Shown here piece by piece: positions 1-11,962 of a stretch of DNA of 11,962 nt; position 1 is the stretch's first letter, and every line of letters begins with the position of its first letter. Source of the DNA: a virus. The stretch covers positions 1 through 11,962 of IMG/VR virus record IMGVR_UViG_3300045988_013335. One strand, given 5' to 3'. The position numbers and the translations under genes were made by a program. The notes under the pieces are model-generated. The model searched no databases, had not been told where the DNA came from, and saw only the letters and a program-made list of their open reading frames with translations.

Positions 1-216
1 GTATACAAATGACCCATTTTTAACGTTTCCCAACACACTTTTAACAGTTGTTAGCACAGTTTGGCACGCTTTTTGTTGTGAGCCGTGCCAACTGAGCCGA
101 TGAAACAAAGTTTAACAGGTCGTTAAGATAGTTTAACAAACGCATATAAAGATGCGACTTCGCCTTAGAAATTGCATATTTATGCGACTTTGTACCGATG
201 TATAATTATTCAGATT

Positions 217-307
217 AAGCCACGATGAGCCACCACCGCCACAGACCGCCACATATTTAGCTATGCTAAATACGCCACCATAGCCACAGAAGCCAAATGA
301 GCCACCT
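217..307. repeat. Phased GCCAC iteron-like array with central palindrome (left ITR copy)
   Basis: GCCAC starts at 219, 229, 238 and 248. An 8-bp-arm palindrome TATTTAGC-tat-GCTAAATA follows at 254-272. GCCAC then starts at 274, 283 and 301, with a GCCAA variant at 292. Spacing is 9-10 bp and all copies have the same orientation. Confidence 0.8.
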
Positions 308-317
308 ACAGGGCGTT

Positions 318-355
318 AAAAAAGACCCCGTGGGCAATAACACCTCACAGGGTCT
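318..355 (-). terminator. Intrinsic terminator of the late (structural) operon, located inside the left ITR
   Basis: The minus strand reads AGACCCTGTG-aggtgttattgcc-CACGGGGTCT followed by TTTTTTAAC. This is a 10-bp GC-rich stem with one U-G wobble plus a T6 tail. It begins 22 nt after the TAG stop (377-379) of the last gene. Confidence 0.75.
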
Positions 356-376
356 AATAAGGGCACAGGGCTTATT

Positions 377-2335
377 CTATAAGGTGAAGCCGTTGCGCAA
401 AATGTTTATAATAGTGTTAACATCGTCCATCAACATATTTGAAGTGTCTGCAAATTTGACGTTCACCAACTTTGTAAAGCCTACAACGTCTTTGACCTTA
501 GTCAGACGTGAAGAAGCGGTTTCAACGCCTGTGCTTGTGATGGTCTTCTTTTGCAAAATGATGTAAGGTGTCAGACCCATAAGATAAGTTGAATCGAACT
601 TTGAACCACCAAGCACTCTTACTTCTTGTTTCTGAGTTCTGAAAAGAACATCGGTACACGGTTCAACTTCTTTCGTATATACAATTCTGTCTTCACAGGT
701 CAACACATACATACCACCGCCACCAATTATGTTGACCCTCAGTTCAAGTTCAACGGTGTGCCCTATAAGGTCAACAGGCAACGTTTCAAGACCGATGAAC
801 GGCACAAACATATTCAAGTCTGTATCATAGTCAGCCGTGCTTTGTGTGACGTTTGGAATGTCAACAGAACCGAACGAAATCACCTTTGTATCAGAAGTTA
901 AGTTAAACACGTTTGTATCTACTTGGAAATTACCACACATCAGTTTTGACGTAGAACCTTTTTCAACAGGGAAGAAGAATCTTTTGACCCTGTTAACATA
1001 GTCGCCAAGGTCATAAGAAATGGGGTCTTCTTTCGTACTTGCCGAATCACCTGTGTATGGTACAAAACGAGCGGTGGCAAAGTCTTCAAGATTCTGTTCA
1101 TTCAACACATAAGCGTTGATAAAACCATATTTCTTTGTCGGGGTTGAAGTCGGTGTCGCTTCACCCTCAACTTCAATATACCAATCGTGTTCGATTGCTA
1201 TCTGCGGGGTTATTGTGCCTGTGGCGGTCAGCATATCGTCGCTTACCGTCATATATACCACACGACCACCTGTTAAACTGTTGTAGCCTGTTATTTTGCA
1301 CTTCTTAGCGTCATAGAATTTGTTTCCTGCATCAGCGTTCAAAGTGAATGTGACAGGCTCACCAACGAAACAGTACGTAGGCTTTTCAACAGGTGTGCAC
1401 CCCGATAAATAATAATCAATACGCAAAGCCTTTTTGGTTTCGCCTGTTACAACTACATCGTGTTTTAAATCAACGTCAGCCAACACCACAGAAGCGTTTG
1501 AAATAACGTTATCTTCATCTACAAGCGGTTTCACAACAACGTTGACAGGTACGGACACATTCTTGTTGCTTCCATCTTTGCCAACGTAGGCACAGGACAC
1601 GTTCAACATTACCTTTTTAGAAGACAGGTTAACAGTCACAGAAGAACCGTTCACGGTGTGTGAAATTAAAGTATCTGGAACTTTATTAATAACGGTCACG
1701 TCTGTAGGCTCAACGGCTTTGGTGTTACCGTCCAACGTAGCATAGCCACCATAAGAAGCGGTCGCAAGGGTGAATGTTGCAACGTTATCCGAAACGGTCA
1801 TATTTTCCGTGGTTGCATCTGCAAACGGGTCTTCGGGGTCTGCACCATAAGTTACGGTCGGCACACCGTCAAAGGTGAATCCGTTTTCACACGTCAACGT
1901 TATAACGGTATTGTCGCCCTGTACTTCTGTTTTATATGTGGTGTGTTGAACGTTGTTTGTGACTGCTAAGGGTTCAACAGGCGAACCACCGCCGGCATAA
2001 AGGGTGAATCTTGCGGTATCTGTAAACAGTGATGTTGGTTTGAATCGCCAAGAGATAAACGTTCCATCGCTTGTGATACCTGTCATACCGCCATTAATAA
2101 CGGTTTGGTCTTCATCAGCCGTTACCTTTTTGGCTGTTACGTTAAAGGTTTGTGGCGCACCGTTATAAGTAACTTCAAACGTACCTGTTTTCACGTTGTC
2201 TTCAAAAAAGCAACCGTTAACGGCTTTCGCTTTCATAGCGACCCAATCCGAACCATCGTTTGTGTATGTCGTGGGGTTATTTTCAACGCCTGTACACTTG
2301 TCAAAATTGTATATAATATCGTAAGTACTTGCCAT
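377..2335 (-). CDS. Tail protein: N-terminal beta-repeat (Ig-like or InlB-B-repeat-like) adhesin region fused to a phi29 gp9 (tail knob)-like C-terminal half. Probable receptor-binding tail knob.
   Basis: 652-aa ORF, last gene of the operon. The C-terminus ...FTKLVNVKFADTSNMLMDDVNTIINILRNGFTL resembles my recollection of the phi29 gp9 C-terminus (...DLQEIRTIFDNGITLW). The first ~400 aa are T/V/N/G-rich with recurring strand motifs (TFEVTYNG, VITLTCENGFTFDG, VATFTLATASYGG, PVTFTLNADAGNKF). The ATG overlaps the upstream stop (TAATG). Confidence 0.6.
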   Translation of the reverse strand: MASTYDIIYNFDKCTGVENNPTTYTNDGSDWVAMKAKAVNGCFFEDNVKTGTFEVTYNGAPQTFNVTAKKVTADEDQTVINGGMTGITSDGTFISWRFKPTSLFTDTARFTLYAGGGSPVEPLAVTNNVQHTTYKTEVQGDNTVITLTCENGFTFDGVPTVTYGADPEDPFADATTENMTVSDNVATFTLATASYGGYATLDGNTKAVEPTDVTVINKVPDTLISHTVNGSSVTVNLSSKKVMLNVSCAYVGKDGSNKNVSVPVNVVVKPLVDEDNVISNASVVLADVDLKHDVVVTGETKKALRIDYYLSGCTPVEKPTYCFVGEPVTFTLNADAGNKFYDAKKCKITGYNSLTGGRVVYMTVSDDMLTATGTITPQIAIEHDWYIEVEGEATPTSTPTKKYGFINAYVLNEQNLEDFATARFVPYTGDSASTKEDPISYDLGDYVNRVKRFFFPVEKGSTSKLMCGNFQVDTNVFNLTSDTKVISFGSVDIPNVTQSTADYDTDLNMFVPFIGLETLPVDLIGHTVELELRVNIIGGGGMYVLTCEDRIVYTKEVEPCTDVLFRTQKQEVRVLGGSKFDSTYLMGLTPYIILQKKTITSTGVETASSRLTKVKDVVGFTKLVNVKFADTSNMLMDDVNTIINILRNGFTL

Positions 2336-2766
2336 TATCTATTACCTTTAATCGTTATCATAACTATCGAACCATCGTCCGTTAATTCATTCAAAGGGAA
2401 CGGTATCTTTTCTTTCTGCGTCCTAACGTCACATATAGGCTTGTAGTCACCATCGTACTTATGTGGCGAATCGGTGGCGTAAATCTCGCCTGTAGCTTCA
2501 AGAATCTGTTCTTTGAACGTAGTAAGAGAATCACAGGACAAAGACAAATAAGCCTTGTCACCGTCATATTTTACGGAATCAATAAAGTAATAACGCCCTA
2601 TTGGTTCAACGTAACACATCGTAAAGCCATCGACCTTACCACGAACGCAAATAACAGGCGTTAAAAAGTCCATTTCTGAAATCTTGCCTGTGATAGTAAC
2701 AGGGTCGCCAAGAACCTTGTTTATCTTGTTGCGTTCACCATTGTATTTATAAAACAGTACGTTCAT
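2335..2766 (-). CDS. Tail protein resembling the N-terminal domain of phi29 gp9 tail knob
   Basis: 143-aa ORF. The segment YVEPIGRYYFIDSVKYDGDKAYLSLSCDSLTTF resembles my recollection of the gp9 N-terminal region (NKWFYAFVTELEF...FEIDVLQTW). The gene is translationally coupled to the 652-aa tail ORF. Confidence 0.5.
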   Translation of the reverse strand: MNVLFYKYNGERNKINKVLGDPVTITGKISEMDFLTPVICVRGKVDGFTMCYVEPIGRYYFIDSVKYDGDKAYLSLSCDSLTTFKEQILEATGEIYATDSPHKYDGDYKPICDVRTQKEKIPFPLNELTDDGSIVMITIKGNR

Positions 2767-3148
2767 AGTTCTGCACTTTTATAGTTACCGAACCGTGCAA
2801 ATTCACGATTCCTTGAATGATTGCGTTTACGTTCTGAAACGTCTGCTTTGAATTTGAAACAGAACCCTTTGCAAGATTCCGTCCAACCAATATGCAGCCC
2901 TGTGTGTCCTTTGGGTAATTACCTGGATGAATCATAATTCCGGCACGTCCGTCAACTTGCAACAGGAACGGCATTTTCCGACCGAACTTGTTTGAATATT
3001 GATACCCGATTCTGTACGTACCCGGATCAATACAAGGGTGGTTCACGTTCTTGGGTGGTTCAAGAGTATCGCACAGGTAAGTATCACTATCATATAACTT
3101 ACCAATAGTGTATTTGTCATTCTGAAAGATTCTTTCCAATACTAACAT
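2747..3148 (-). CDS. DUF5675 / YkuD-fold-like small cell-wall enzyme (candidate endolysin or virion peptidoglycan hydrolase)
   Basis: 133-aa ORF. The motif IMIHPGNYPKDTQGCILVG (His74 ... Thr-x-Gly-Cys85-Ile) matches the L,D-transpeptidase-type catalytic signature H...(S/T)xGC(I/V). It is the only candidate peptidoglycan-active protein in the genome. Confidence 0.5.
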   Translation of the reverse strand: MLVLERIFQNDKYTIGKLYDSDTYLCDTLEPPKNVNHPCIDPGTYRIGYQYSNKFGRKMPFLLQVDGRAGIMIHPGNYPKDTQGCILVGRNLAKGSVSNSKQTFQNVNAIIQGIVNLHGSVTIKVQNYERTVL

Positions 3149-3162
3149 AATTAATCAATTTT

Positions 3163-3202
3163 AAAGTAAAAACGGTGGCACACCGTAAGAATGCGCCACC
3201 GT
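3163..3202 (-). terminator. Intrinsic terminator or attenuator immediately downstream of the capsid gene
   Basis: The minus strand reads ACGGTGGCGCA-ttcttacgg-TGTGCCACCGT, an 11-bp stem with one G-U, followed by TTTTACTTTAA. It starts 7 nt after the capsid protein stop (3209-3211). Confidence 0.65.
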
Positions 3203-3208
3203 CCAAAA

Positions 3209-4384
3209 TCAGGCAACAAAGAACACTACAAAATTCTCGTTGGTGTCGTTGAAGTAACCTGCATCGAACTTATAATAATTGTTGAAGAACTCAGCCTTTG
3301 CGTTGTAGTTGGTAGTTACACGCTTATCAAGATTGCAAACACCGAGTGCGTCACGGTCGAACATCACACCAAGCACACCACCGATTTTGATGTCGTGGTT
3401 TCCGCTTGTCTTGATGTTGATAGCAGAAGTATGAGCAAAGCCGTAATCTTTGCCTGTACCTTGCCAAGAAGCAACGGTTTCAGCGTTTGGCAACAGAACC
3501 TGTTCTTTGTTGTAGGTGTCTGCGTACAAGTACGCCTGTGCGCCCTTTGCAAAGTCAGACAACAGGACGGTGTGCAACGAATCCTTTGGGGTGAAACGTT
3601 CCTTACCACCAACGTTGAAGAGTGTAGAGATAGACTGCAAACGGTCTGCATACAATCCCATCTGATAAGAAGCAAAGCGAATGAAATCGCCATCGGTCAA
3701 ACACTTGTCAGCGGTCAAAGTTGTGCCCTTTGCCTTGTTGTAGAGATACAACAGGTTCACGCATCTTACAGTTGAAGTTGACCCGTAGTTCACGGCTTTG
3801 CCTGTGCCTGTGAATGCTGCTGTATCAGCAAACAGGGTTTCGCCCACCATATTGTTGATAGTGCGCATAATAAGAGCGTCTGTCTTGATAGTCATTGACT
3901 TCTCAACGGCTGCGTAAATCATAGACAAGAAGCCGTTCAACTGTGCTGCACTGCTGAAAGATTCCTTTACCTGTCGTTCTGTGATGGAAACAGGAACTTC
4001 AAAAGTTACCTTAGAGTTGAAGAACTTAGCGGAAACAACAGGCTTGTGGAAAATGTCCTGTTTGTATTCCTGTCCGTCTGTAAGATTCCAAGTGTCGTTC
4101 TCTGTAGCCTTTGGAACGTCAGCGGAAATCTTTTCAAGTACAGAACCAAATTCCCAAGCGTCCATCAATACAGACGGAATCTTGCCTGCATAAGGGCGGT
4201 TTACGAAAATCACCTTACCGATGTGGTTTACAAGTGACTTCACGTAGTTATCAACTGCACCTTGGTTGAATACTTCTGTACCAAGGTCAACAACGCCTGT
4301 AAGGTCTTCTGCTACGATGTCGGTTTTACCGAGAACCTCACCACTTACTGAGTTAATCAGTTCATAAATCTGTTTTACTTCCAT
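3209..4384 (-). CDS. Major capsid protein, phi29 gp8-like (HK97 fold expected)
   Basis: 391-aa ORF. AVDNYVKSLVNHIGKVIFV and SSAAQLNGFLSMIYAAVEKSMTIKTDALIMRTINNM resemble remembered phi29 gp8 segments ([53 protein letters not shown]). Its size and its position after the portal and a scaffold-like gene fit, and it is followed by a strong terminator. Confidence 0.8.
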   Translation of the reverse strand: MEVKQIYELINSVSGEVLGKTDIVAEDLTGVVDLGTEVFNQGAVDNYVKSLVNHIGKVIFVNRPYAGKIPSVLMDAWEFGSVLEKISADVPKATENDTWNLTDGQEYKQDIFHKPVVSAKFFNSKVTFEVPVSITERQVKESFSSAAQLNGFLSMIYAAVEKSMTIKTDALIMRTINNMVGETLFADTAAFTGTGKAVNYGSTSTVRCVNLLYLYNKAKGTTLTADKCLTDGDFIRFASYQMGLYADRLQSISTLFNVGGKERFTPKDSLHTVLLSDFAKGAQAYLYADTYNKEQVLLPNAETVASWQGTGKDYGFAHTSAINIKTSGNHDIKIGGVLGVMFDRDALGVCNLDKRVTTNYNAKAEFFNNYYKFDAGYFNDTNENFVVFFVA

Positions 4385-4398
4385 TTTAAAATAATTAA

Positions 4399-4956
4399 TT
4401 ATTCGTAAATACTTAATGTTAAATAACTTACTAAAGTGTTGATGATGTCTTCACGAACGTTCATCAAACGTGCACGGTATTCGTCCAACATAGCCTGTGT
4501 TACGTTACCGTTGAATCCTGTACGTGAAACTGTGCCTGTTTCCGTTTCCGTTCGGTTCTTGGCGTTTGACTTGTCTTCTTTGGAATCGTCCTTGAAGCCA
4601 TCATCGTTGAACGCCTTATCACTCTTTGTGATTCCGTCCGTATTGGATTCCTGTACTGTCACGGTCTTGTCGGTCGAAGTACTTTGAAGCACAGGTTTCA
4701 GAAAATCGTACTTCTTGGTGAAGACTTCAAACTGATTCTTGAACGTATCTACGCACATATCAAGAACCGCGCCTGTGAAGTCTTTGCAGTTGGATTCCGT
4801 GAATGAATCAAGAACCGTTCTGTTTCCGAACTTCACCAAAGCAAAGGTATCGGGCTTTGTTTCCCCGAATATCTCAGCATAAATTTCGGGGTAACGTTCT
4901 TTAAAGATTACGCCAAAAAGTTGGTTTTCCCCGATGAATAATTCTTTGAATAACAT
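4399..4956 (-). CDS. Structural-module protein of unknown role (candidate scaffold or lower-collar/adaptor)
   Basis: 185-aa ORF between the portal and capsid genes. It has a central acidic, Lys-rich low-complexity stretch (DDGFKDDSKEDKSNAKNRTETETG) and a helical C-terminus. I recognise no motif, so the assignment rests on position only. Confidence 0.4.
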   Translation of the reverse strand: MLFKELFIGENQLFGVIFKERYPEIYAEIFGETKPDTFALVKFGNRTVLDSFTESNCKDFTGAVLDMCVDTFKNQFEVFTKKYDFLKPVLQSTSTDKTVTVQESNTDGITKSDKAFNDDGFKDDSKEDKSNAKNRTETETGTVSRTGFNGNVTQAMLDEYRARLMNVREDIINTLVSYLTLSIYE

Positions 4957-4969
4957 ACGCTATAACGAA

Positions 4970-5974
4970 TTAAGTTTCTTTTTCTTCTTTTTCTTCTGTT
5001 TCAGAAGTTTCTTCTTTTTCTTCTGTTTCAGAAGTTTCTTCTTTTTCTTCTGTTTCGGTCGTTTCTTTGGTTTCTTCTGTTTCCTCAGTTTCAACCTTTT
5101 CGATGTCCTTAGACAACGCCAAGAAGTTTTCGTGTTCCAACTTCCAAGAAGAATTTAAATCCACGGTGATGTCAGTTCCGAACATTTCATTTACCTGTTT
5201 GATTGCGTCACGTCTGCTATTCAGCATATTTTCCACATAAGGCAAAAGCACGTCCACGTTCATTGAAACTTCACCAAGGTTCAAACGTTCACGCTTCATA
5301 TTATAGTTGGCGTTCAAGCCAAGTTCGTTGAGCATTGAACCCCTGTAATACTGTACGAGTTCAACCAGTTGTGTTATGTATTGACTGTTTGAAACGTTGG
5401 CGGTCTGCATTGATACGCCCTTGAAGAAACTGTTTTCACCGATTACTGAAAAGTCACCGTTGAGAATCTTTTTCAAGAACTCGTCTGCACTCTGTTTGGT
5501 CTTATCATCAGAAGCACTTATCAGCATAGTGATGCGTGTCAGAATTGAAGCTGTGTTCAACGAAATAAGACCGTCTGTGTACAGAACCGCAAATTTGCCG
5601 ATGACAGGCAGCAGGCTTTGACCGTTGGTGTCGTTCTTCATCAGAACACAATCAGAACCGATTCTGTACGTCTTGTTCAACTTTAACCAAGGGTTCGCCA
5701 CGATGTAATCAACAGGGCGACCGTATGCGTCACAATCGCCACCTGTAGAACCACCAAGGGCGTACAGGTCATTTCCTACCTTTGCTATAGCACAGTTTCC
5801 ACTTTCCTGTAACAGGCGTTCAAGTTCCACATGTGGAATAGTTTCGGGAAGACCATCGTACTTGAACATCGACTGAGTAATAGCCAAAGTATGTTCCATA
5901 AAAGACGTTACGGCAACGTCCTTTGTCTTCACCTGTGCTTGGTAGTGCGTATAGATATTATCTAATTTTTTCAT
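4970..5974 (-). CDS. Portal (connector / upper collar) protein, phi29 gp10-like, with acidic repeat C-terminal tail
   Basis: 334-aa ORF. [30 protein letters not shown] resembles phi29 gp10 [48 protein letters not shown] resembles [31 protein letters not shown] resembles INELYGLNVKVKF. These comparisons are from memory. Confidence 0.85.
   Translation of the reverse strand: [334 protein letters not shown]
4981..5057. repeat. 27-bp tandem repeat (~2.9 copies) encoding the acidic portal tail
   Basis: Full units GAAGTTTCTTCTTTTTCTTCTGTTTCA occur at 5004-5030 and 5031-5057 (one mismatch). A 23-nt partial copy lies at 4981-5003. On the minus strand these encode (S/T)ETEEKEET repeats. Confidence 0.9.
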
Positions 5975-6165
5975 TTTACCAAAGTTTTAATTAATGTGCA
6001 AAGTTCCGTCAAAACTTTCGTGTTTGCTTCAACCGTAGCACTTAGCTTGTCGGTTTCGTCTTTGTGCTTGTCTTCCTGTTTCATCATAAAATAAAACAGG
6101 GCGACACATACCGCAATCGGAAAACCAACGTTACTGATTAATGATATAACTTCGTTCATACTCAT
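5971..6165 (-). CDS. Small single-pass membrane protein (holin candidate)
   Basis: 64-aa ORF with one hydrophobic segment (VISLISNVGFPIAVCVALFYFMM) followed by a charged helical tail. It is the first gene after the late promoter, and its stop overlaps the portal start (ATGA). Confidence 0.4.
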   Translation of the reverse strand: MSMNEVISLISNVGFPIAVCVALFYFMMKQEDKHKDETDKLSATVEANTKVLTELCTLIKTLVK

Positions 6166-6190
6166 AATTTCTTATTATTTTAACTATTTG

Positions 6191-6198
6191 CAAAGATA
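6191..6198 (-). promoter_or_regulatory. Late promoter -7 element (TATCTTTG), Bacteroidota type
   Basis: The minus strand reads CGTATCTTTGCA. It matches TAnnTTTG and lies 25 nt upstream of the ATG at 6165. The 12-mer is identical to the one at 11474-11485. The -33 region has only CTTG (6221-6224). Confidence 0.5.
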
Positions 6199-6217
6199 CG
6201 AATAAAAATTCGTATCT
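6194..6217 (-). terminator. Perfect 10-bp hairpin after the ATPase gene (possible terminator, overlapping the late promoter)
   Basis: The minus strand reads AGATACGAAT-tttt-ATTCGTATCT followed by TTGCAAAT. It lies 14 nt after the ATPase stop (6232-6234). The U-tail is weak, and the 3' arm forms part of the -7 box. Confidence 0.4.
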
Positions 6218-6231
6218 AAGCAAGATTTATA

Positions 6232-7356
6232 TTATTTAACACTCAAAATGTTGTTTTTTGCGCTTGTCATAATATAATTGCGTACAATTTCACCTATTTC
6301 GTTGTTCTGATAGAAAACCTTATCGGTTGCGAAGAATCGGGCGACCTTGGCTTCAAGTTCCGTCGCAGTACTTATCAACTTTCTTTTGTAGTTCGGTTTT
6401 CCGTTCATCGTAAGCGAATAAATCAAACTGTTGTCGGTGTCCTTGATAGGTGTCGTTTTGGCGTGAATGTAGGTGAAGCACTCATCATCAACCTGTATGA
6501 TATTCGCCTGTAACACCGTACCGTTGAACTCTATAAAGTAAGTGAAAAGCACGTCCTTTGGCTTGTACTTCTTTGGCAGGTGCGGATAAACTGCAAGTTC
6601 CCATTTACCGCCCGTAATCATCTGCAAAGCCTCATTTCCAAAGCAGAAGTACTTGTTTGACGGCTTTTCCTTTTCCAAGGTGTCGCAATATTCCACCGCC
6701 ACCGTTGCACCGTCTTCACCGAATCGGTACAGGTCGATATTTCCCTGTGGCATATTCTGTATGTTATTCAGACCCATTTCACCAAAGTACGGACAGAACT
6801 TGTTCACCGTGTTACCAAGCATAAACACACGGACGTTGGAACGGTTTCTGATAATCGTACTAAGTACGTTCATAAATAACATAAATTCATCGGGCAAATA
6901 ATAACGCCTTGTTATGAACTCATCAAACACGACCGTGGTTATCATCGGGTAACTTGTTGACTTGTCGTGTTCCTGTTCTGACAGACAGAATCCATAACAG
7001 AACGGCTTATCATCGGGGAAGCGTTTGCCCTTGTTGCTATCGTAGTAAGACAAAAACCATTTACCCGATAAATAAAATACTTCGTTGTACTTACCGTTCG
7101 TTACCTGTGACACAAAGCCGTTGGCAACGTGACCCGCAAACAGGGATTCAGCACGTTTTCCCCTCAAGTCTTCACGCCATCGTCTGACGTATGCACTTTG
7201 TTCACCTGTTTCAACGTAGTTGATAATCATATACGCCAAACACGCATAAGTCTTACCGTTGGAACGTTCACCGAAAATGATGTTATAGTCAGCATTCTTT
7301 TCAAGAATAGCTGATAAACTGTAATACTGCGGTTTTTTACTTTTCTTTCCAAACAT
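6232..7356 (-). CDS. DNA packaging (encapsidation) ATPase, phi29 gp16-like
   Basis: 374-aa ORF. Walker A GERSNGKT lies at 7249-7272, followed by SAYVRRW (phi29 has GARGIGKSY ... FIYVRR). Walker B is TTVVFDEF. Confidence 0.85.
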   Translation of the reverse strand: MFGKKSKKPQYYSLSAILEKNADYNIIFGERSNGKTYACLAYMIINYVETGEQSAYVRRWREDLRGKRAESLFAGHVANGFVSQVTNGKYNEVFYLSGKWFLSYYDSNKGKRFPDDKPFCYGFCLSEQEHDKSTSYPMITTVVFDEFITRRYYLPDEFMLFMNVLSTIIRNRSNVRVFMLGNTVNKFCPYFGEMGLNNIQNMPQGNIDLYRFGEDGATVAVEYCDTLEKEKPSNKYFCFGNEALQMITGGKWELAVYPHLPKKYKPKDVLFTYFIEFNGTVLQANIIQVDDECFTYIHAKTTPIKDTDNSLIYSLTMNGKPNYKRKLISTATELEAKVARFFATDKVFYQNNEIGEIVRNYIMTSAKNNILSVK

Positions 7357-7360
7357 ATCT

Positions 7361-9553
7361 TTAATCTTTAAATTTGATACCCATTAAAAAGTTTAAATAC
7401 ATAACAGACAGCGAAAGTGAATAACCTGTTGCTTCAAGATGCACGCCCGAAAGTTCGTGAAATTCACCCTGTTCGCCTGTGTAGTCAGTTAACACGCCCT
7501 GTTGCTCATAGTCAATATAGGTGTGGATATTCTTGCCTGTAGCCTGTGGAGGTATCGCCAAATAGTTAGTGAATGCTTCAAAGATTCCGTCCTGTCCGTA
7601 AGTTTCAAGTAACCACGGGATAGCACTTTTCTTGTTCACACCGCTTACTGTCAAAGATACAGGATAACTTTTACCGCCAACGGTCAAAGCGTCTTCTTCT
7701 TCCATCATATAACGTTTTGCGCCAAGGGTCTTGAACCGACTGTAAACACCCTCAAAGTCCCAAACGCCCATCAACTTGTTAATGCCCTTTATGGTCTTTG
7801 GTTCAAACAGTTCAAAGTCTATCTTATGATATTTCGCAGCCTGTCTTAGCTTATATTCTACCATCGTGTTATATTCTTTGAAGTACTGTGCGTGTGCTTC
7901 ACCGTTCTGCAATTTAACGGAATCGGTGTCTGAATATATGTAATCGTCACCGCATTCGTAAATTCCTGTAAACAGGTTTCTTCTTGCATAAGCCGTTACA
8001 AACACACCCCAAGGGTAAAACAGGAATCGGTTTCGACTGCCGTTGTACTTCACCAAGGTTTCATTTATCTTGTCCGATGTAAGGTGTAAAACATCCCATT
8101 CACCGTTATAAGTAAATTCGTCACGTAGTGGATTCGTCACACACATACCGTAACAACTGTTTAACATTTCCTTGAAATTTAAATATTCCACTTCTTTTCC
8201 TTTTACGCCCTTTAACGTTGTCTTGTTGGCATACAGGTGAAGAATAGACTTTACGAACTCTGTGGGCAAATACGCCTTTTTATAGCACCACATATCGACC
8301 ACCTTTTCATCTTCCCAAGTGTAGAACATTTTAAACACGTTATAGTCAACGTTCGTGATGGTAGTCACTACCTTGTCAGCCGAAAAGACACGACCGTTAT
8401 TTTCCACTACGTTTTCTTTGTAGAAGCACTTAGAAACAGACAAGGGCGTGTCCTGTACCTGTGAACTCATTATCTTTGTAAATTCGATGTCGAAGATACA
8501 ACAGTAAGCAGACAGGAAAAATTCAAATTGCTTCTTACTTTTTACCTGTACGTGTACGCCCGAACTCATCGGGAACTGTTCTGCAACCATCACATAAGGA
8601 TAACTGCTTGTGAAATCGTAACTGCTGACGTTCGTCATAACATCGTCTGTGTGGTTCGCATTTGCGTGTGTGAAGCCACCACTAAAAGCCCTTTGCAACG
8701 TGTTGAACTCGTCAACACCGCTTATGTTTAGGTCGTGAATCGTGTTTATATAAGACCAATTTTGCACGGTCTTCCCGAACTCGTCTTCACAGTACAGACA
8801 ATGTTTGCGACAATACTTTCTCACAAAGCCTGTTTTGGTAATCGGCAAATGTGTGATTCCCTTATAACGTTCTATCATTTCCTGTATGTAGCACATCACT
8901 ACTTTTACGTCATTAAGGCAATAGCCCATTTCTTTTTCTGTTAGCGGTGTCTTACTGTGACGTAACAGGGAATAATCAAGATCGCCCACCATCTTTTCAC
9001 ATTTGTACTTCATAAGTTGACCGCCCAACTTTGCCAAGGAATAACCCGACAATAGATAGCTGCAACGAAATTCGATACCCGATTCCGTGATAGCGTAAAT
9101 CGGTTTTCTTAGGTCTATTGAAAATACTTTGTTCCACGTGAAACGTTGTCTGATAAATTGGAACTCATACGCCAAGTTATGAACGTACACTATCAAACGC
9201 CTGTTTTCTGATAGCTGCAAGTAGTCAGAAATCGTTTCCATCATTTCGGTAAACTCTTCCCAAGTACGACCGACTACACAATAACCGTTTATTCCAAATT
9301 GCCAAACATACATACAGGAACACTTTTCCAACTTCACGCCTAATTTGGTGTATTGCTCATAGGACAGATATTCGTCACCGTTCTTGTAGAATGAAGTGGT
9401 TTCTATGTCAAAGCATACAGGAATATCAAAGAACTTTTGTTTTTTGTTGTTTCCACGCAAACATGATTCATCGACCGCCAAATTAAGGACGGTTATTATT
9501 TCTTGGGGTGAATAGACTTCACCGTGCAAACAAAAATTCTTTTTCTTTTTCAT
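7361..9553 (-). CDS. Protein-primed family-B DNA polymerase
   Basis: 730-aa ORF. Motifs: ExoI FDIETT (D48, E50); ExoII HNLAYEF (N126); ExoIII YCLNDV (Y211, D215); motif A YDFTSSYP (D313); motif B KEMLNSCYG (K461); motif C YSDTDS (D542, D544; nt 7919-7936); KxY GAKRY (K613). The start overlaps the upstream stop (ATGA). Confidence 0.93.
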   Translation of the reverse strand: MKKKKNFCLHGEVYSPQEIITVLNLAVDESCLRGNNKKQKFFDIPVCFDIETTSFYKNGDEYLSYEQYTKLGVKLEKCSCMYVWQFGINGYCVVGRTWEEFTEMMETISDYLQLSENRRLIVYVHNLAYEFQFIRQRFTWNKVFSIDLRKPIYAITESGIEFRCSYLLSGYSLAKLGGQLMKYKCEKMVGDLDYSLLRHSKTPLTEKEMGYCLNDVKVVMCYIQEMIERYKGITHLPITKTGFVRKYCRKHCLYCEDEFGKTVQNWSYINTIHDLNISGVDEFNTLQRAFSGGFTHANANHTDDVMTNVSSYDFTSSYPYVMVAEQFPMSSGVHVQVKSKKQFEFFLSAYCCIFDIEFTKIMSSQVQDTPLSVSKCFYKENVVENNGRVFSADKVVTTITNVDYNVFKMFYTWEDEKVVDMWCYKKAYLPTEFVKSILHLYANKTTLKGVKGKEVEYLNFKEMLNSCYGMCVTNPLRDEFTYNGEWDVLHLTSDKINETLVKYNGSRNRFLFYPWGVFVTAYARRNLFTGIYECGDDYIYSDTDSVKLQNGEAHAQYFKEYNTMVEYKLRQAAKYHKIDFELFEPKTIKGINKLMGVWDFEGVYSRFKTLGAKRYMMEEEDALTVGGKSYPVSLTVSGVNKKSAIPWLLETYGQDGIFEAFTNYLAIPPQATGKNIHTYIDYEQQGVLTDYTGEQGEFHELSGVHLEATGYSLSLSVMYLNFLMGIKFKD

Positions 9554-10188
9554 TATAGACCAAATTTCTTTAAAGTGCCCATTATTCCGCTTTTAATACT
9601 GTTGGCATAGTCCAGCACATTTTGAGCGTCTTTTTCCAAATCCTGTTCGATAGCCTGTTCCAACCTTGCAGCGTCTGTTTCTATTTGTTCGGAAACGTCT
9701 GCTGCTTCTGTTTCAAGTTCACCTGTGAAATCCTTGTATCTCATCAAGTACTGTTCCACGAAGTTTTCATCAGACACAGACAAGAACTTTTCCTGTATCT
9801 TGTCAGCCATCAGATTAAATTCGTCTTCTGTAAGGTCGTAGGCATCCATCAAATGTTCGTTGTACTCTCGTACACCTGTGGCGGTTGATGTAGGTTGACG
9901 TAAGAACCCCACCGCTTTTGCATACTCGGCTTTTAGGTCTTCCCAATCGTGTTTCATTGAAAACTTGGTGAAACCCTTTATATCACCCTTGTTTAACGCC
10001 ATAACTGAGGGTGATACAAGCCCTTTTGATTCGATGTTCTGAATACGTCTGTTTGCCTGTTGAAAGATTCTTCTTATCTCGGCTTTGTATTCTGGCGAAC
10101 TCATCTTTGCTTCGATGATTCTTTGCTTAATTACGGCTTTGTTGAACGAGAACGTCCTATCACTAAAGCCAATAGGATTCATACCCAT
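9553..10188 (-). CDS. Candidate terminal protein (replication primer)
   Basis: 211-aa ORF immediately upstream of the polymerase and translationally coupled to it, as in phi29 gene 3 and gene 2. PEYKAEIRRIFQQANRRIQNIESKG resembles phi29 TP AEYARLVKNTKAKIARTKKKYG. GFTKFSMKHDWEDLKAEYAKAVGF resembles SFETRAQFNKWKEQASSF. It has an acidic helical C-terminal half and ends ...LKKFGL (phi29 ends ...LKGF). All comparisons are from memory. Confidence 0.55.
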   Translation of the reverse strand: MGMNPIGFSDRTFSFNKAVIKQRIIEAKMSSPEYKAEIRRIFQQANRRIQNIESKGLVSPSVMALNKGDIKGFTKFSMKHDWEDLKAEYAKAVGFLRQPTSTATGVREYNEHLMDAYDLTEDEFNLMADKIQEKFLSVSDENFVEQYLMRYKDFTGELETEAADVSEQIETDAARLEQAIEQDLEKDAQNVLDYANSIKSGIMGTLKKFGL

Positions 10189-10189
10189 A

Positions 10190-10235
10190 ACTACTTAAAA
10201 TTAAAGGGCACACCTAAAAAGAATAAGTGCGCCCT
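10190..10235 (-). terminator. Hairpin plus U-rich tract between the 116-aa gene and the terminal protein/polymerase genes (attenuator candidate)
   Basis: The minus strand reads AGGGCGCAC-ttattctttttag-GTGTGCCCT, a 9-bp stem with one G-U, followed by TTAATTTTAAG. It lies 18 nt after the stop at 10254-10256. Confidence 0.4.
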
Positions 10236-10253
10236 ATGTGTGAAACTTCAATA

Positions 10254-10604
10254 CTACTTAATATCAACGAAGTTGATACCGTAACAGGTCTTAGCGTGTG
10301 ACTCATAAGTGTAGATTGTGTAACCTACCTTACCATCCTTTATTGCCTGTACTGCTTCTGTGTTTGCGAGAATCTCACGGAATGTCTCACCCATGTGTTT
10401 TGGCATATTTACCAACTTCTTCGCCTGTACGTCAATAACTACAGGTGAATCACCCAAAGCAGAACCGTGGACGTACAGACCGTTGATAGGATGAATCTCA
10501 TCGGGTGATGAACCCTTTGCCACGTCTGCTAACTTGATGTACTCGTAATCCTTGGTATCAATACCAAAAGAAGCCTTGTTGAATGTGTTACTGAAACTAA
10601 ACAT
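10254..10604 (-). CDS. Early protein, candidate ssDNA-binding or genome-end-binding protein
   Basis: 116-aa ORF just upstream of the replication genes, where phi29 has gp5 and gp6. Its size is similar to gp5 (124 aa). Sequence resemblance is only vague, so the call is positional. Confidence 0.3.
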   Translation of the reverse strand: MFSFSNTFNKASFGIDTKDYEYIKLADVAKGSSPDEIHPINGLYVHGSALGDSPVVIDVQAKKLVNMPKHMGETFREILANTEAVQAIKDGKVGYTIYTYESHAKTCYGINFVDIK

Positions 10605-10645
10605 AATTGTAAAAATTTAAATGTTAAACTTATTATAAACTGTTA

Positions 10646-10813
10646 TTACTCACTCACATTTTCAGATTCGATTCGGTCTATCAACCATTTACGGAATCTG
10701 TTCACCTTGATAACGGCTTTGTCATCGTTGCACATTTCTTTGGTCTGTAGCAGACCATTAAGAGCGGTCAAAGCGTTAAACAGGTTTTCTTGATAATCGT
10801 TTCTTTCTTCCAT
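10646..10813 (-). CDS. Small hypothetical early protein (55 aa), absent from the supplied ORF track
   Basis: My translation is MEERNDYQENLFNALTALNGLLQTKEMCNDDKAVIKVNRFRKWLIDRIESENVSE, with a TAA stop at 10646-10648. Its ATG overlaps the TGA of the upstream ORF by 1 nt (TGATG). It fills an otherwise unexplained 200-nt gap in a densely packed genome. Confidence 0.5.
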   Translation of the reverse strand: MEERNDYQENLFNALTALNGLLQTKEMCNDDKAVIKVNRFRKWLIDRIESENVSE

Positions 10814-11010
10814 CACTTTTGAAACTTAATGTAACCACCGTGATTTACTACGGTGGTGTCCGTTGTTACTATTACTGTGCGCCCTTTTGCTTCCACGTTC
10901 TGTGAAGTGGTGCAAGAACCAAAGACGCTAATTACTACAAAGCAGATAACCGTCCAAAGGACAAATGCACAGGTGGATTCTATCACCCCAATCTTTTCTT
11001 TTCTATCCAT
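10813..11010 (-). CDS. Small predicted lipoprotein (early gene)
   Basis: 65-aa ORF with a charged N-region (MDRKEK), a hydrophobic core (CAFVLWTVICFVVISVF) and a lipobox-like F-G-S-Cys33. The mature part is a 33-aa T/V-rich peptide. Confidence 0.5.
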   Translation of the reverse strand: MDRKEKIGVIESTCAFVLWTVICFVVISVFGSCTTSQNVEAKGRTVIVTTDTTVVNHGGYIKFQK

Positions 11011-11302
11011 CGTACTTACTTTTATGTTTGATAAACTCAGACATCAGTCTGTTTTCTGATAAGAAATCAAGAACCTGTGTAAACTCATCTTGAAGTTTAT
11101 TCACCAGCAGACCATCTTTCTTATCTTGCATCAGAACATCTTGAACCACGATTCTTGCTTCTAAAACCGTATTATTTACGGCATTTAACAGGTTCTTTTG
11201 TTCTGTGTTCAAGCCCTGTGCAATAATGTCCATATCGTCACAGGCTCTGTCCAATACTTGAAGCAACATCAACAATGCTTCTTCTTTCTTCTTTGTGTCC
11301 AT
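11003..11302 (-). CDS. Hypothetical early protein (helical, 99 aa), first gene of the early operon
   Basis: ORF with coding-like composition. It overlaps the next gene by 8 nt. I recognise no motif. Confidence 0.6.
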   Translation of the reverse strand: MDTKKKEEALLMLLQVLDRACDDMDIIAQGLNTEQKNLLNAVNNTVLEARIVVQDVLMQDKKDGLLVNKLQDEFTQVLDFLSENRLMSEFIKHKSKYDG

Positions 11303-11475
11303 ACGCCTTTATTTTGTGCCTGTAGCTTTTACACTACAGGCGTTAAACTTATCCTACACGCTCACTTTTAACACGTTTACCGTTAACTGATAAAACGGTT
11401 TCACATTCTAAAGTAATTTTATATGTTGCAATAATTTCTAATTTTAATTAATAACTCATTTTCTGAATCACGGTG

Positions 11476-11507
11476 CAAAGATACGGCGATTTTTTGAACC
11501 TACCAAA
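11476..11507 (-). promoter_or_regulatory. Early promoter, Bacteroidota type (-33 TTTG / -7 TATCTTTG)
   Basis: On the minus strand, TTTG (11507-11504) is followed by a 20-nt spacer and then TATCTTTG (11483-11476). This fits the TTTG-N19-21-TAnnTTTG consensus of Bacteroides sigma-ABfr promoters. The core 12-mer is identical to the one at 6189-6200. GGCGATTTTTT copies at 11485-11495 and 11533-11543 bracket the -33 element. Confidence 0.6.
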
Positions 11508-11607
11508 TTATTTTTGTTAAAAAGTCTTAATTGGCGATTTTTTCTTTTTTTCTCTGTTTTTTGCGCTTTTCGGCTTCACCTTATAGAATAAGCCCTGTGC
11601 CCTTATT

Positions 11608-11645
11608 AGACCCTGTGAGGTGTTATTGCCCACGGGGTCTTTTTT
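11608..11645 (+). terminator. Mirror copy of the ITR terminator, facing outward on the plus strand
   Basis: Same hairpin and T6 tail, read on the plus strand in the right ITR. It would stop any transcript heading toward the right terminus. Whether it is used is unknown. Confidence 0.45.
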
Positions 11646-11655
11646 AACGCCCTGT

Positions 11656-11746
11656 AGGTGGCTCATTTGGCTTCTGTGGCTATGGTGGCGTATTTAGCAT
11701 AGCTAAATATGTGGCGGTCTGTGGCGGTGGTGGCTCATCGTGGCTT
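11656..11746. repeat. Phased GTGGC iteron-like array with central palindrome (right ITR copy)
   Basis: Mirror image of 217-307 inside the right ITR. Confidence 0.8.
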
Positions 11747-11962
11747 AATCTGAATAATTATACATCGGTACAAAGTCGCATAAATATGCAATTTCTAAGG
11801 CGAAGTCGCATCTTTATATGCGTTTGTTAAACTATCTTAACGACCTGTTAAACTTTGTTTCATCGGCTCAGTTGGCACGGCTCACAACAAAAAGCGTGCC
11901 AAACTGTGCTAACAACTGTTAAAAGTGTGTTGGGAAACGTTAAAAATGGGTCATTTGTATAC

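Follow-up and report, generated by a model that had tools for sequence, protein, structure and literature searches.

A 12-kb linear viral genome points to a large uncultured human-gut clade of protein-primed, phi29-like podophages most likely infecting Bacteroidota

We analyzed an 11,962-nucleotide (nt) stretch of viral DNA, IMG/VR record IMGVR_UViG_3300045988_013335, positions 1 to 11,962 (referred to at its full length as the window), which is framed by inverted terminal repeats (ITRs) and encodes polymerase, packaging and virion genes resembling those of phage phi29. Considering gene content, relatives, promoters and termini together, we put the probability at roughly 80% that the window represents a virulent, phi29-like, protein-primed podophage from a large uncultured human-gut clade related to Astrithrvirus, with a member of the Bacteroidota as its most likely host.

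Gene content and layout

Fourteen open reading frames (ORFs) tile positions 377-11302 with small gaps and overlaps, all on the minus strand, leaving 1036 nt of non-coding DNA at the two ends (1-376 and 11303-11962). This arrangement, described in an earlier note made from the sequence, recurs in an ENA record: gene calling done independently for an identical contig placed the same 14 genes on one strand. TGA is used as a stop, as had also been claimed, and ends three ORFs; the genome contains no tRNA genes. The repeats and genes on which the argument turns are the following.

1-392: left ITR as given; the true end probably lies 4 nt further out (AAAG)
11571-11962: right ITR, at the upstream end relative to the genes
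377-2335, minus strand: g14, 652 amino acids, distal tail-knob protein with repeated beta-rich (immunoglobulin (Ig)-like) modules and a conserved C-terminal part
2335-2766, minus strand: g13, 143 amino acids, proximal tail-knob protein, counterpart of the N-terminal portion of phi29 gp9 and C1 gp12
2747-3148, minus strand: g12, 133 amino acids, DUF5675 protein (1.5e-33), candidate endolysin of the C82 or YkuD-like L,D-peptidase type
3209-4384, minus strand: g11, 391 amino acids, phi29-type major capsid protein (Pfam Phi29_MCP, 2e-53)
4399-4956, minus strand: g10, 185 amino acids, candidate short lower collar protein, from position and weak homology
4970-5974, minus strand: g09, 334 amino acids, gp10-type connector (portal), from Pfam, PHROG and phmmer
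5971-6165, minus strand: g08, 64 amino acids, single-pass membrane protein and candidate holin, its position conserved across the whole group of relatives
6232-7356, minus strand: g07, 374 amino acids, gp16-type packaging ATPase (Walker A GERSNGKT, Walker B VVFDEF)
7361-9553, minus strand: g06, 730 amino acids, protein-primed family-B DNA polymerase, from Pfam, PHROG, phmmer and motifs
9553-10188, minus strand: g05, 211 amino acids, candidate terminal protein, from position, TAATG coupling and Astrithrvirus homology

The polymerase, claimed by the earlier note to carry all motifs of its class, was borne out by profile, phmmer and motif evidence. It matches Pfam DNA_pol_B_2 (E value 7e-11), phrog_1907 (3e-73) and phi29 polymerase 1XHX (4e-8, phmmer), and its translation contains FDIETT, HNLAYEF, YCLND, DFTSSYP, KEMLNSCYG, YSDTDS and KRY, representing Exo I-III, A, B, C and KxY. 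The assignments of the ATPase, connector and capsid protein likewise held, with Pfam matches for all three. The ATPase hits Podovirus_Gp16 (7e-23) and, by phmmer, phi29 gp16 5HD9 (1e-19), while the connector hits Phage_connector (7e-13), phrog_2038 (7e-39) and, by phmmer, phi29 connector 1H5W (7e-7).

The gene preceding the polymerase, g05, is a candidate terminal protein. It had been proposed to be coupled to the polymerase by an ATGA overlap; the coupling is real, but the junction reads TAATG, with a 1-nt overlap. The protein is homologous to gp02, the gene at the same position in Salmonella phage astrithr and Acinetobacter phage Phanie (3e-7), and belongs to a family of 3,342 database clusters. 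Several searches failed to support the assignment: there was no match to Pfam Phi-29_GP3, no PDB profile match to phi29-family terminal proteins, and hhalign against the terminal proteins of phi29, GA-1, B103 and Cp-1 returned a probability of 2%, so that the comparison with phi29 gp3 suggested in the earlier note gave no detectable similarity. We infer the role of g05 from its position, its helical character and its homology to Astrithrvirus gp02. Its AlphaFold model is all-helical and, at a predicted local distance difference test (pLDDT) score of 53, too poor for a fold search.

Relationship to Astrithrvirus and other phages

No deposited phage matched the window at the nucleotide level (megablast). 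The nearest described phages are astrithr, Astrid and assan of Salmonella, DU_PP_III of Pectobacterium and Phanie of Acinetobacter, joined by similar Enterobacter, Shigella and Vibrio phages (10.4-11.9 kb). The group was reviewed in 2024 as phi29-like phages of Gram-negatives with 11-14-kb genomes, a short collar and a two-gene knob ('cluster 23'; PMC11476376). It shares with the window a linear genome of 11-12 kb, ITRs and the lack of a tail-fibre gene, as well as 55-61% identity in the capsid protein, 53-56% in the ATPase, 42-47% in the polymerase and 40-43% in the connector. The core order is also the same: candidate terminal protein, polymerase, gp16 ATPase, small membrane protein, connector, collar candidate of about 185 amino acids, capsid protein, proximal knob of about 145 amino acids and large distal knob. 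Given this order and identities of 59-61% (capsid), 45-47% (polymerase) and 53-56% (ATPase), the proposal that the window is a distinct lineage had to be abandoned; judged by its proteins, it is a member of the known Astrithrvirus-like group. Its near-minimal size was confirmed. Both the 12-kb length and the ATPase at the end of the early block are real, but neither is peculiar to this genome: Astrithrvirus maps show the same small size and the ATPase directly after the polymerase, which makes them traits of the group.

Within the group, the window stands apart in several respects. Astrithrvirus genomes carry two to four leftward genes at the far end and a terminal CHAP or amidase lysin, whereas the window is coded on one strand, with DUF5675 inside the late block. 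Its ITR of 392(+4) nt compares with annotated inverted repeats of 84 nt in Astrid and 171 nt in Phanie; four early genes differ, Bacteroidota-type promoters are present and Shine-Dalgarno sites are missing. The window also lies below the genome-wide nucleotide similarity of about 70% that the practice of the International Committee on Taxonomy of Viruses sets for the genus Astrithrvirus, and it probably represents a new genus or higher taxon within the group.

The capsid protein has 355 relatives in IMG/VR, the best 80 of which were examined in detail; genomes with at least 90% capsid identity, 30 in number, are referred to as the window's clade. Further metagenomic lineages, with capsid identities of 80%, 70% and 53-66%, bridge the distance to Astrithrvirus. 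None of the 30 genomes of the clade codes on the opposite strand; in sister clades and in Astrithrvirus, a small module of leftward genes persists at the far end. The unidirectional layout noted earlier is therefore real, but it is a derived trait confined to the window's immediate clade. In a low-GC sister clade, the promoter is mirrored at both ends, and an inward-facing leftward module (10989-12062 in genome L040) encodes a peptidase-M15-like lysin that the window's clade lacks; this layout is intermediate between Astrithrvirus and the one-strand genomes.

With phi29 and other Salasmaviridae (GA-1, B103, Cp-1), the window has in common the protein-primed polymerase, gp16, gp10, capsid protein, gp9-type knob, ITRs and AAAG ends (the latter in phi29, B103 and Cp-1). 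It differs in size (12 kb against 18-21 kb), in ITR length (about 396 nt against 6 nt in phi29 or 236 nt in Cp-1) and in a knob split into two genes, lacks divergent early and late operons, a detectable packaging RNA (pRNA) and appendage or head-fibre genes, and probably has a Gram-negative host. The analogy to Mycoplasma phage P1 (Delislevirus) that had been drawn earlier did not survive closer comparison. P1 resembles the window in size (11,660 bp), ITRs (350 bp) and a protein-primed-type polymerase, but its genes converge on two strands and follow the Mycoplasma code, in contrast to the TGA stop here, and only the polymerase is similar (25% identity, E value 6e-9), with no other protein match.

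Only one phi29-like phage had previously been suggested for Bacteroidales, 'Bacteriophage sp. isolate 2692_55609' (cluster 30; PMC11476376). It resembles the window in its origin from human faeces, its 12.1-kb genome with 42.5% GC, its split knob and its suggested Bacteroidales host. The same review groups it with Amedibacillus phage AD70P2 by capsid and polymerase (PMC11476376). The capsid protein of the window shows 59-61% identity to cluster 23 but no more than 28% to AD70P2, so that isolate 2692_55609 is probably a different lineage.

Candidate lysis genes and probable host

The candidate holin g08 matches phrog_4898 (holin, 5e-9) and Phanie gp05 (9e-9). The second lysis candidate, g12, sits between the capsid and knob genes, and the invariant residues of its DUF5675 family are H74 and G84-C85. 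The family was classed as C82-like and as a candidate lysin in a 2026 preprint (bioRxiv 10.64898/2026.04.11.717860), and homologues in Bacteroides crAss-like phages are annotated as L,D-carboxypeptidase or L,D-transpeptidase, some of them adjoining a holin. The CHAP or amidase lysin of Astrithrvirus is absent from the window, and g12 is a candidate for the lysin that has replaced the usual one in the window's clade. Structural support falls short of this proposal: although the model of g12 is good (pLDDT 93), its only recurrent fold matches, YkuD-type L,D-transpeptidases, were below significance, and a sequence search of DUF5675 against the PDB gave nothing significant.

Among deposited phages, the best DUF5675 matches (up to 45% identity) are in small gut microviruses of 6.4-6.8 kb, Dulem virus 260 and bajarodmic viruses. 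This lysin type is common to microviruses, crAss-like phages and the mini-podophage clade of the window.

Two promoters are recognizable in the window.

11476-11507, minus strand: early promoter of Bacteroidota type, TTTG-N20-TATCTTTG, some 60 nt inward from the ITR boundary
6191-6224, minus strand: second (late) promoter of Bacteroidota type, cTTG-N22-TATCTTTG, in the gap of 66 nt preceding g08

The consensus TTTG-N20-TATCTTTG is the established promoter of Bacteroidota. All 30 genomes of the window's clade have it at the same position, as do most genomes of the sister clades, but it occurs in none of three Astrithrvirus genomes and in one of 15 more distant relatives, which upholds the earlier identification of a Bacteroidota-type promoter. 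At the late site, the full TTTG-N20-22-TATCTTTG is found in three relatives (L005, L012 and L014) and throughout the low-GC sister clade. Translation initiation differs in parallel, with Shine-Dalgarno sites (GGAG/GAGG) before 0 of 345 ORFs in the window's clade, compared with 15 of 29 (52%) in Astrithrvirus and 25% in distant relatives. Outside the group, the tail modules of crAss-like genomes hold the nearest DUF5675 proteins; among phages with known hosts, the nearest belong to the cultured Bacteroides phages DAC15, DAC17, crAss001 and PhiCrAssBcn. Promoter, missing Shine-Dalgarno sites and shared lysin, three independent lines of evidence, indicate that the host is most likely a member of the Bacteroidota.

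Some observations pull the other way and would fit a gut member of the Pseudomonadota or Bacillota, with the promoter-like motifs arising by coincidence. All cultured relatives infect Pseudomonadota, DUF5675 also occurs in 50 Vibrio phage records, and the window's second promoter has an imperfect -33 element. Over the whole genome, TAnnTTTG shows no enrichment (13 found, 13.3 expected), so the promoter argument relies on position and conservation. An attempt to read the host from the taxonomy of metagenome-assembled genomes (MAGs) was given up, since the co-binned contigs span many phyla and the labels are uninformative. We nevertheless regard another host phylum as improbable: the full two-box promoter stands at the same two positions in dozens of genomes despite diverged flanks and is missing from enterobacterial relatives, Shine-Dalgarno sites are wholly absent from a clade whose Astrithrvirus relatives have them before 52% of ORFs, and, where the host is known, the phages with the closest DUF5675 proteins all infect Bacteroides.

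Whole genomes of the family (L085-L126) were binned in MAGs labelled Melainabacteria, Prevotella, Christensenellaceae, Bifidobacteriaceae and others. Family fragments also turned up in an isolate assembly of Herbiconiux daphne, as mis-binning or contamination and not as evidence of a host.

Tail genes and possible dependence on a helper

The earlier claim of gp9-like tail proteins held for g13, which matches astrithr gp09 (1e-8) and, as a family profile, the N-terminal portion of the C1 knob 4EO2 (1.4e-4) and, weakly, phi29 gp9 5FB4 (0.059). It held less well for g14, which is linked to the knob only through astrithr gp10 (E value 7e-4); g14 has sister-clade homologues at 27-31% identity (E values to 1e-59), no Pfam match and, as a family profile, no match in the PDB. 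The collar candidate g10 resembles Phanie gp07, which has the same length and position (E value 0.02), and sister-clade proteins (1e-25 to 1e-37), and its family profile found no PDB match. The collar and distal-knob roles of g10 and g14 were assigned after a published review (PMC11476376). No tail-fibre or appendage gene was recognized in Pfam, PHROG and other library searches.

Such a tail raises the question of autonomy. Phanie, which is among the nearest relatives in culture (61% identity in the capsid protein, 56% in the ATPase, same gene order), is reported to need the helper myophage Aci01-1 (PMC11476376; PMC13587820), and the window has the same split tail knob and no recognizable fibre or appendage gene. 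It might, as Phanie, have no tail beyond a knob-type stub and depend for infection on docking to an unrelated helper phage's tail. We judge this quite improbable, since Astrid, a Salmonella phage related just as closely, has been described as non-satellite (bioRxiv 10.1101/2025.06.18.659913), the variable Ig-like modules of g14 could bind receptors themselves, the sequence indicates no helper and the gene held in common with crAss-like phages is the lysin, for which gene exchange in the same host is the simplest explanation. Extended to the whole gut clade, which would then lack a receptor-binding tail of its own and dock on helper tails, for example those of crAss-like phages or myophages, to reach Bacteroidota, the idea becomes very improbable. 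Its support lies in relatedness and the absent fibre gene. If true, it would make tail-hijacking satellite podophages common in the human gut virome.

Genome termini and inverted terminal repeats

The two ITR arms, 392 nt each, are 100% complementary: bases 1-392 are the exact reverse complement of 11571-11962, as the earlier note had stated, and most of the 80 examined relatives have perfect ITRs as well. Many of these begin AAAGGTATAC..., that is, 4 nt before base 1 of the window, with AAAG directly preceding GTATAC. Across 160 contig ends of relatives, AAAG was the exact end in 27 and was fused to Illumina adapter sequence (...GCTCTTCCGATCT) in another 22, while 24 were trimmed by 1-6 nt, as the window is. 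An identical adapter-AAAG fusion occurs in a GenBank MAG contig of another project. Ligation of the adapter to one invariant nucleotide implies a fixed physical DNA end, and the real ITR is probably 396 nt, with AAAG missing from each end of the window. The claim that the window starts and stops at the repeat termini was accordingly right about the absence of host flank and wrong by 4 nt about the ends. Untrimmed adapter at public IMG/VR and GenBank contig ends (here in L005, L014, L015, L043, L046, L056, L058, L070, L072, L074, L082 and L086) is a database contamination, yet it marks true termini.

Metagenome contigs ending in the same terminal sequence, for which a search had been suggested, were found. 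The terminal 24-mer has 17 matches in nine contigs (eight from IMG/VR and one further metagenome contig), all at most 30 nt from an end and none internal, and it is present on both ends of all eight IMG/VR contigs. No direct terminal repeat was seen in the 80 relatives. An ENA contig of 11,178 bp from a human faecal metagenome is 100% identical to positions 393-11570, exactly the unique region; as this second assembly broke at both repeat boundaries, it confirms them independently.

A conserved block occupies the outermost part of the repeat.

1-82, mirrored at 11881-11962, plus strand: conserved terminal block, candidate replication origin, (AAAG)GTATAC...TTTTAACGTTTCCCAAC...TTTTAACAGTTG...TTTGGCACGCTTTTTG

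The terminal 85 nt are retained across subclades whose polymerases are only 66-69% identical (29 distinct termini, three subclades), as expected of a replication origin. In phi29-type initiation, the sliding-back mechanism requires a terminal reiteration, here AAA. Reiterated terminal nucleotides (3'-TTT in the template) that would allow it are seen in the relatives and adapter fusions, the window being 4 nt short. The genomes of phi29 and B103 start AAAGTAAG, that of Cp-1 AAAGCATG and that of GA-1 AAATAGAG, so the AAAG start is common to phi29, B103, Cp-1 and the true termini of the window's relatives (phi29 terminus as given in PMC11476376).

Where termini are full, ITR lengths span 376-490 nt among genomes of the window's clade, with L021 at 212 nt, and about 180-410 nt among those of sister clades. 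Many public relatives (among L006-L067) instead have ITRs of exactly 55, 99, 119 or 141 nt, which are truncation artefacts, as these lengths equal assembler k-mer sizes; for such contigs, ITR-based completeness calls are overstated. The window itself is an essentially complete linear genome, bounded by ITRs, free of host flank and with fixed ends. That a circular or concatemeric genome was misassembled to give these ITRs and ends, a suspicion fed by the k-mer-length repeats of so many relatives, is scarcely credible and already largely refuted, given adapter joined to one and the same end nucleotide in numerous independent contigs of various projects, a terminal sequence that is never internal, the lack of direct terminal repeats in the 80 relatives, the ENA contig broken exactly at both repeat boundaries and the annotated terminal inverted repeats of cultured relatives.

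Two relatives with AAAGGTA at both ends, L078 (11,191 bp) and L026 (11,425 bp), are smaller than the 11.6 kb quoted for the smallest isolated tailed phage.

Proposed life cycle

Three hairpins complete the putative transcriptional signals.

317-355, minus strand: intrinsic-terminator-like hairpin followed by a U-run (UUUUUU), inside the ITR and 22 nt downstream of the last gene
3170-3204, minus strand: terminator-like hairpin after the capsid gene, 15 pairs and a T-run
10205-10235, minus strand: terminator-like or attenuator-like hairpin between g04 and g05, from hairpin prediction

The first of these is kept in both the minimum-free-energy and the centroid fold, and each ITR holds such a terminator-like hairpin facing inward. 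For a virulent podophage of Bacteroidota, the features suggest the following course. Host RNA polymerase with a Bacteroidota sigma factor would start at TTTG-N20-TATCTTTG on the inner side of the upstream ITR and produce a putative early transcript that runs from the small early genes through g05, the candidate terminal protein, and the polymerase gene g06 to the ATPase gene g07. The second promoter, before g08, would boost expression of the holin candidate and the connector, collar, capsid, lysin and tail-knob genes, and the terminator in the far ITR would end this single-direction transcription. Replication may proceed from both ends, with deoxyadenosine monophosphate (dAMP) linked to the terminal protein opposite an internal T of the 3'-TTTCC template end (3'-TTTCCATATG), after which the polymerase would slide back as in phi29 and copy by strand displacement. 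Protein-capped DNA of unit length would then be driven by the gp16-type ATPase through the gp10-type connector and into a small capsid of phi29 type, to which a short tail of collar and two-gene knob would be added. Lysis would be brought about by the membrane protein g08 and the DUF5675 (C82-like) peptidoglycan peptidase g12.

A point at odds with phi29-like packaging is that no pRNA gene was found, with no Rfam match even at E values up to 10, and packaging may differ from that of phi29 here. Outside phi29 and its relatives among Bacillus phages, the published review notes, no pRNA is known (PMC11476376). Two candidate regions were rejected. The interior of the ITR folds as well on one strand as on the other. 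The leader that follows the early promoter, 170 nt long (11303-11472), folds well (z -3.3) and is not conserved: close relatives carry about 240 nt more in this region, with an ORF that starts at ...AAATTAGAAATT followed directly by ATG where the window reads ATT (11432-11430). As this start coincides with the window's ATT, the leader is a decayed accessory-gene slot and not a conserved RNA.

Implications

With a Bacteroidota host, the window would extend the smallest autonomous-looking tailed phages, 11-12-kb phi29-like phages of Gram-negative hosts, from Pseudomonadota into the seemingly dominant phylum of the human gut. The branch is abundant in gut metagenomes and very large in public data, with 355 related IMG/VR contigs and over 3,000 candidate-terminal-protein clusters, but it is uncultured and virtually undescribed. 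Its adapter-marked AAAG termini provide exact ends and a defined origin, making the biochemistry of protein priming in a Bacteroidota system directly testable. The family also offers a natural comparison, in which one compact genome plan has been re-tooled for differing promoters, modes of translation initiation and cell walls. The minimal protein-primed replicon and the C82-like lysin candidate might serve as tools for Bacteroidota.

Small early genes, repeats and further motifs

The remaining genes and motifs lie mostly near the upstream end and in the ITRs.

10254-10604, minus strand: g04, 116 amino acids, conserved early protein, 60-64% identical in sister clades and also present in L092, L115 and L124
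10646-11302, minus strand: g03 (55-56 amino acids, conserved), g02 (65 amino acids) and g01 (99 amino acids), small early genes; g02 and g01 are clade-specific
219-305, mirrored at 11658-11744, plus strand: seven GCCAC copies in the same orientation, phased at 9-10-nt spacing, candidate protein-binding iterons
109-116, 130-137, 10623-10630, 11342-11349, 11826-11833 and 11847-11854: copies of AGTTTAAC, from motif search
11318-11349, minus strand: AGTTTAAC and, after it, the hairpin GCCTGTAG-N8-CTACAGGC, shortly upstream of g01

The position of g04 suggests a DNA-binding replication accessory protein. It had no match in the protein and profile libraries searched, and its candidacy as the phi29 p5 single-stranded DNA-binding protein was dropped as there was no signal; homologues of phi29 p3, p5 and p6 were not recognizable in the window. 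The product of g02 (10813-11010) occurs in the window's clade only and bears a signal peptide together with a lipobox-like VFGS/C; on these sequence features, it could be a spanin-like or superinfection-exclusion lipoprotein, a role that would fit a Gram-negative host.

The GCCAC array, with seven copies, compares with at most two per 100 nt elsewhere; the ITRs of the window's clade hold three to seven copies, those of sister clades zero or one. AGTTTAAC occurs seven times in the window (0.94 expected), six of the seven in non-coding DNA and two in each ITR. Its combination with the hairpin before g01 is conserved in relatives, two of which (L013 and L025) show a compensatory A:T to G:C change, and the motif may mark a site for a regulator or a promoter element particular to the phage.

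Finally, tandem 27-nt repeats at 4954-5115 encode a strongly acidic C-terminal tail of the connector (...EEKEETSETEEKEETSETEEKEEKET). Connectors range from 333 to 386 amino acids among related metagenomic genomes and reach 425 in astrithr, a spread which suggests that the repeat copy number varies.

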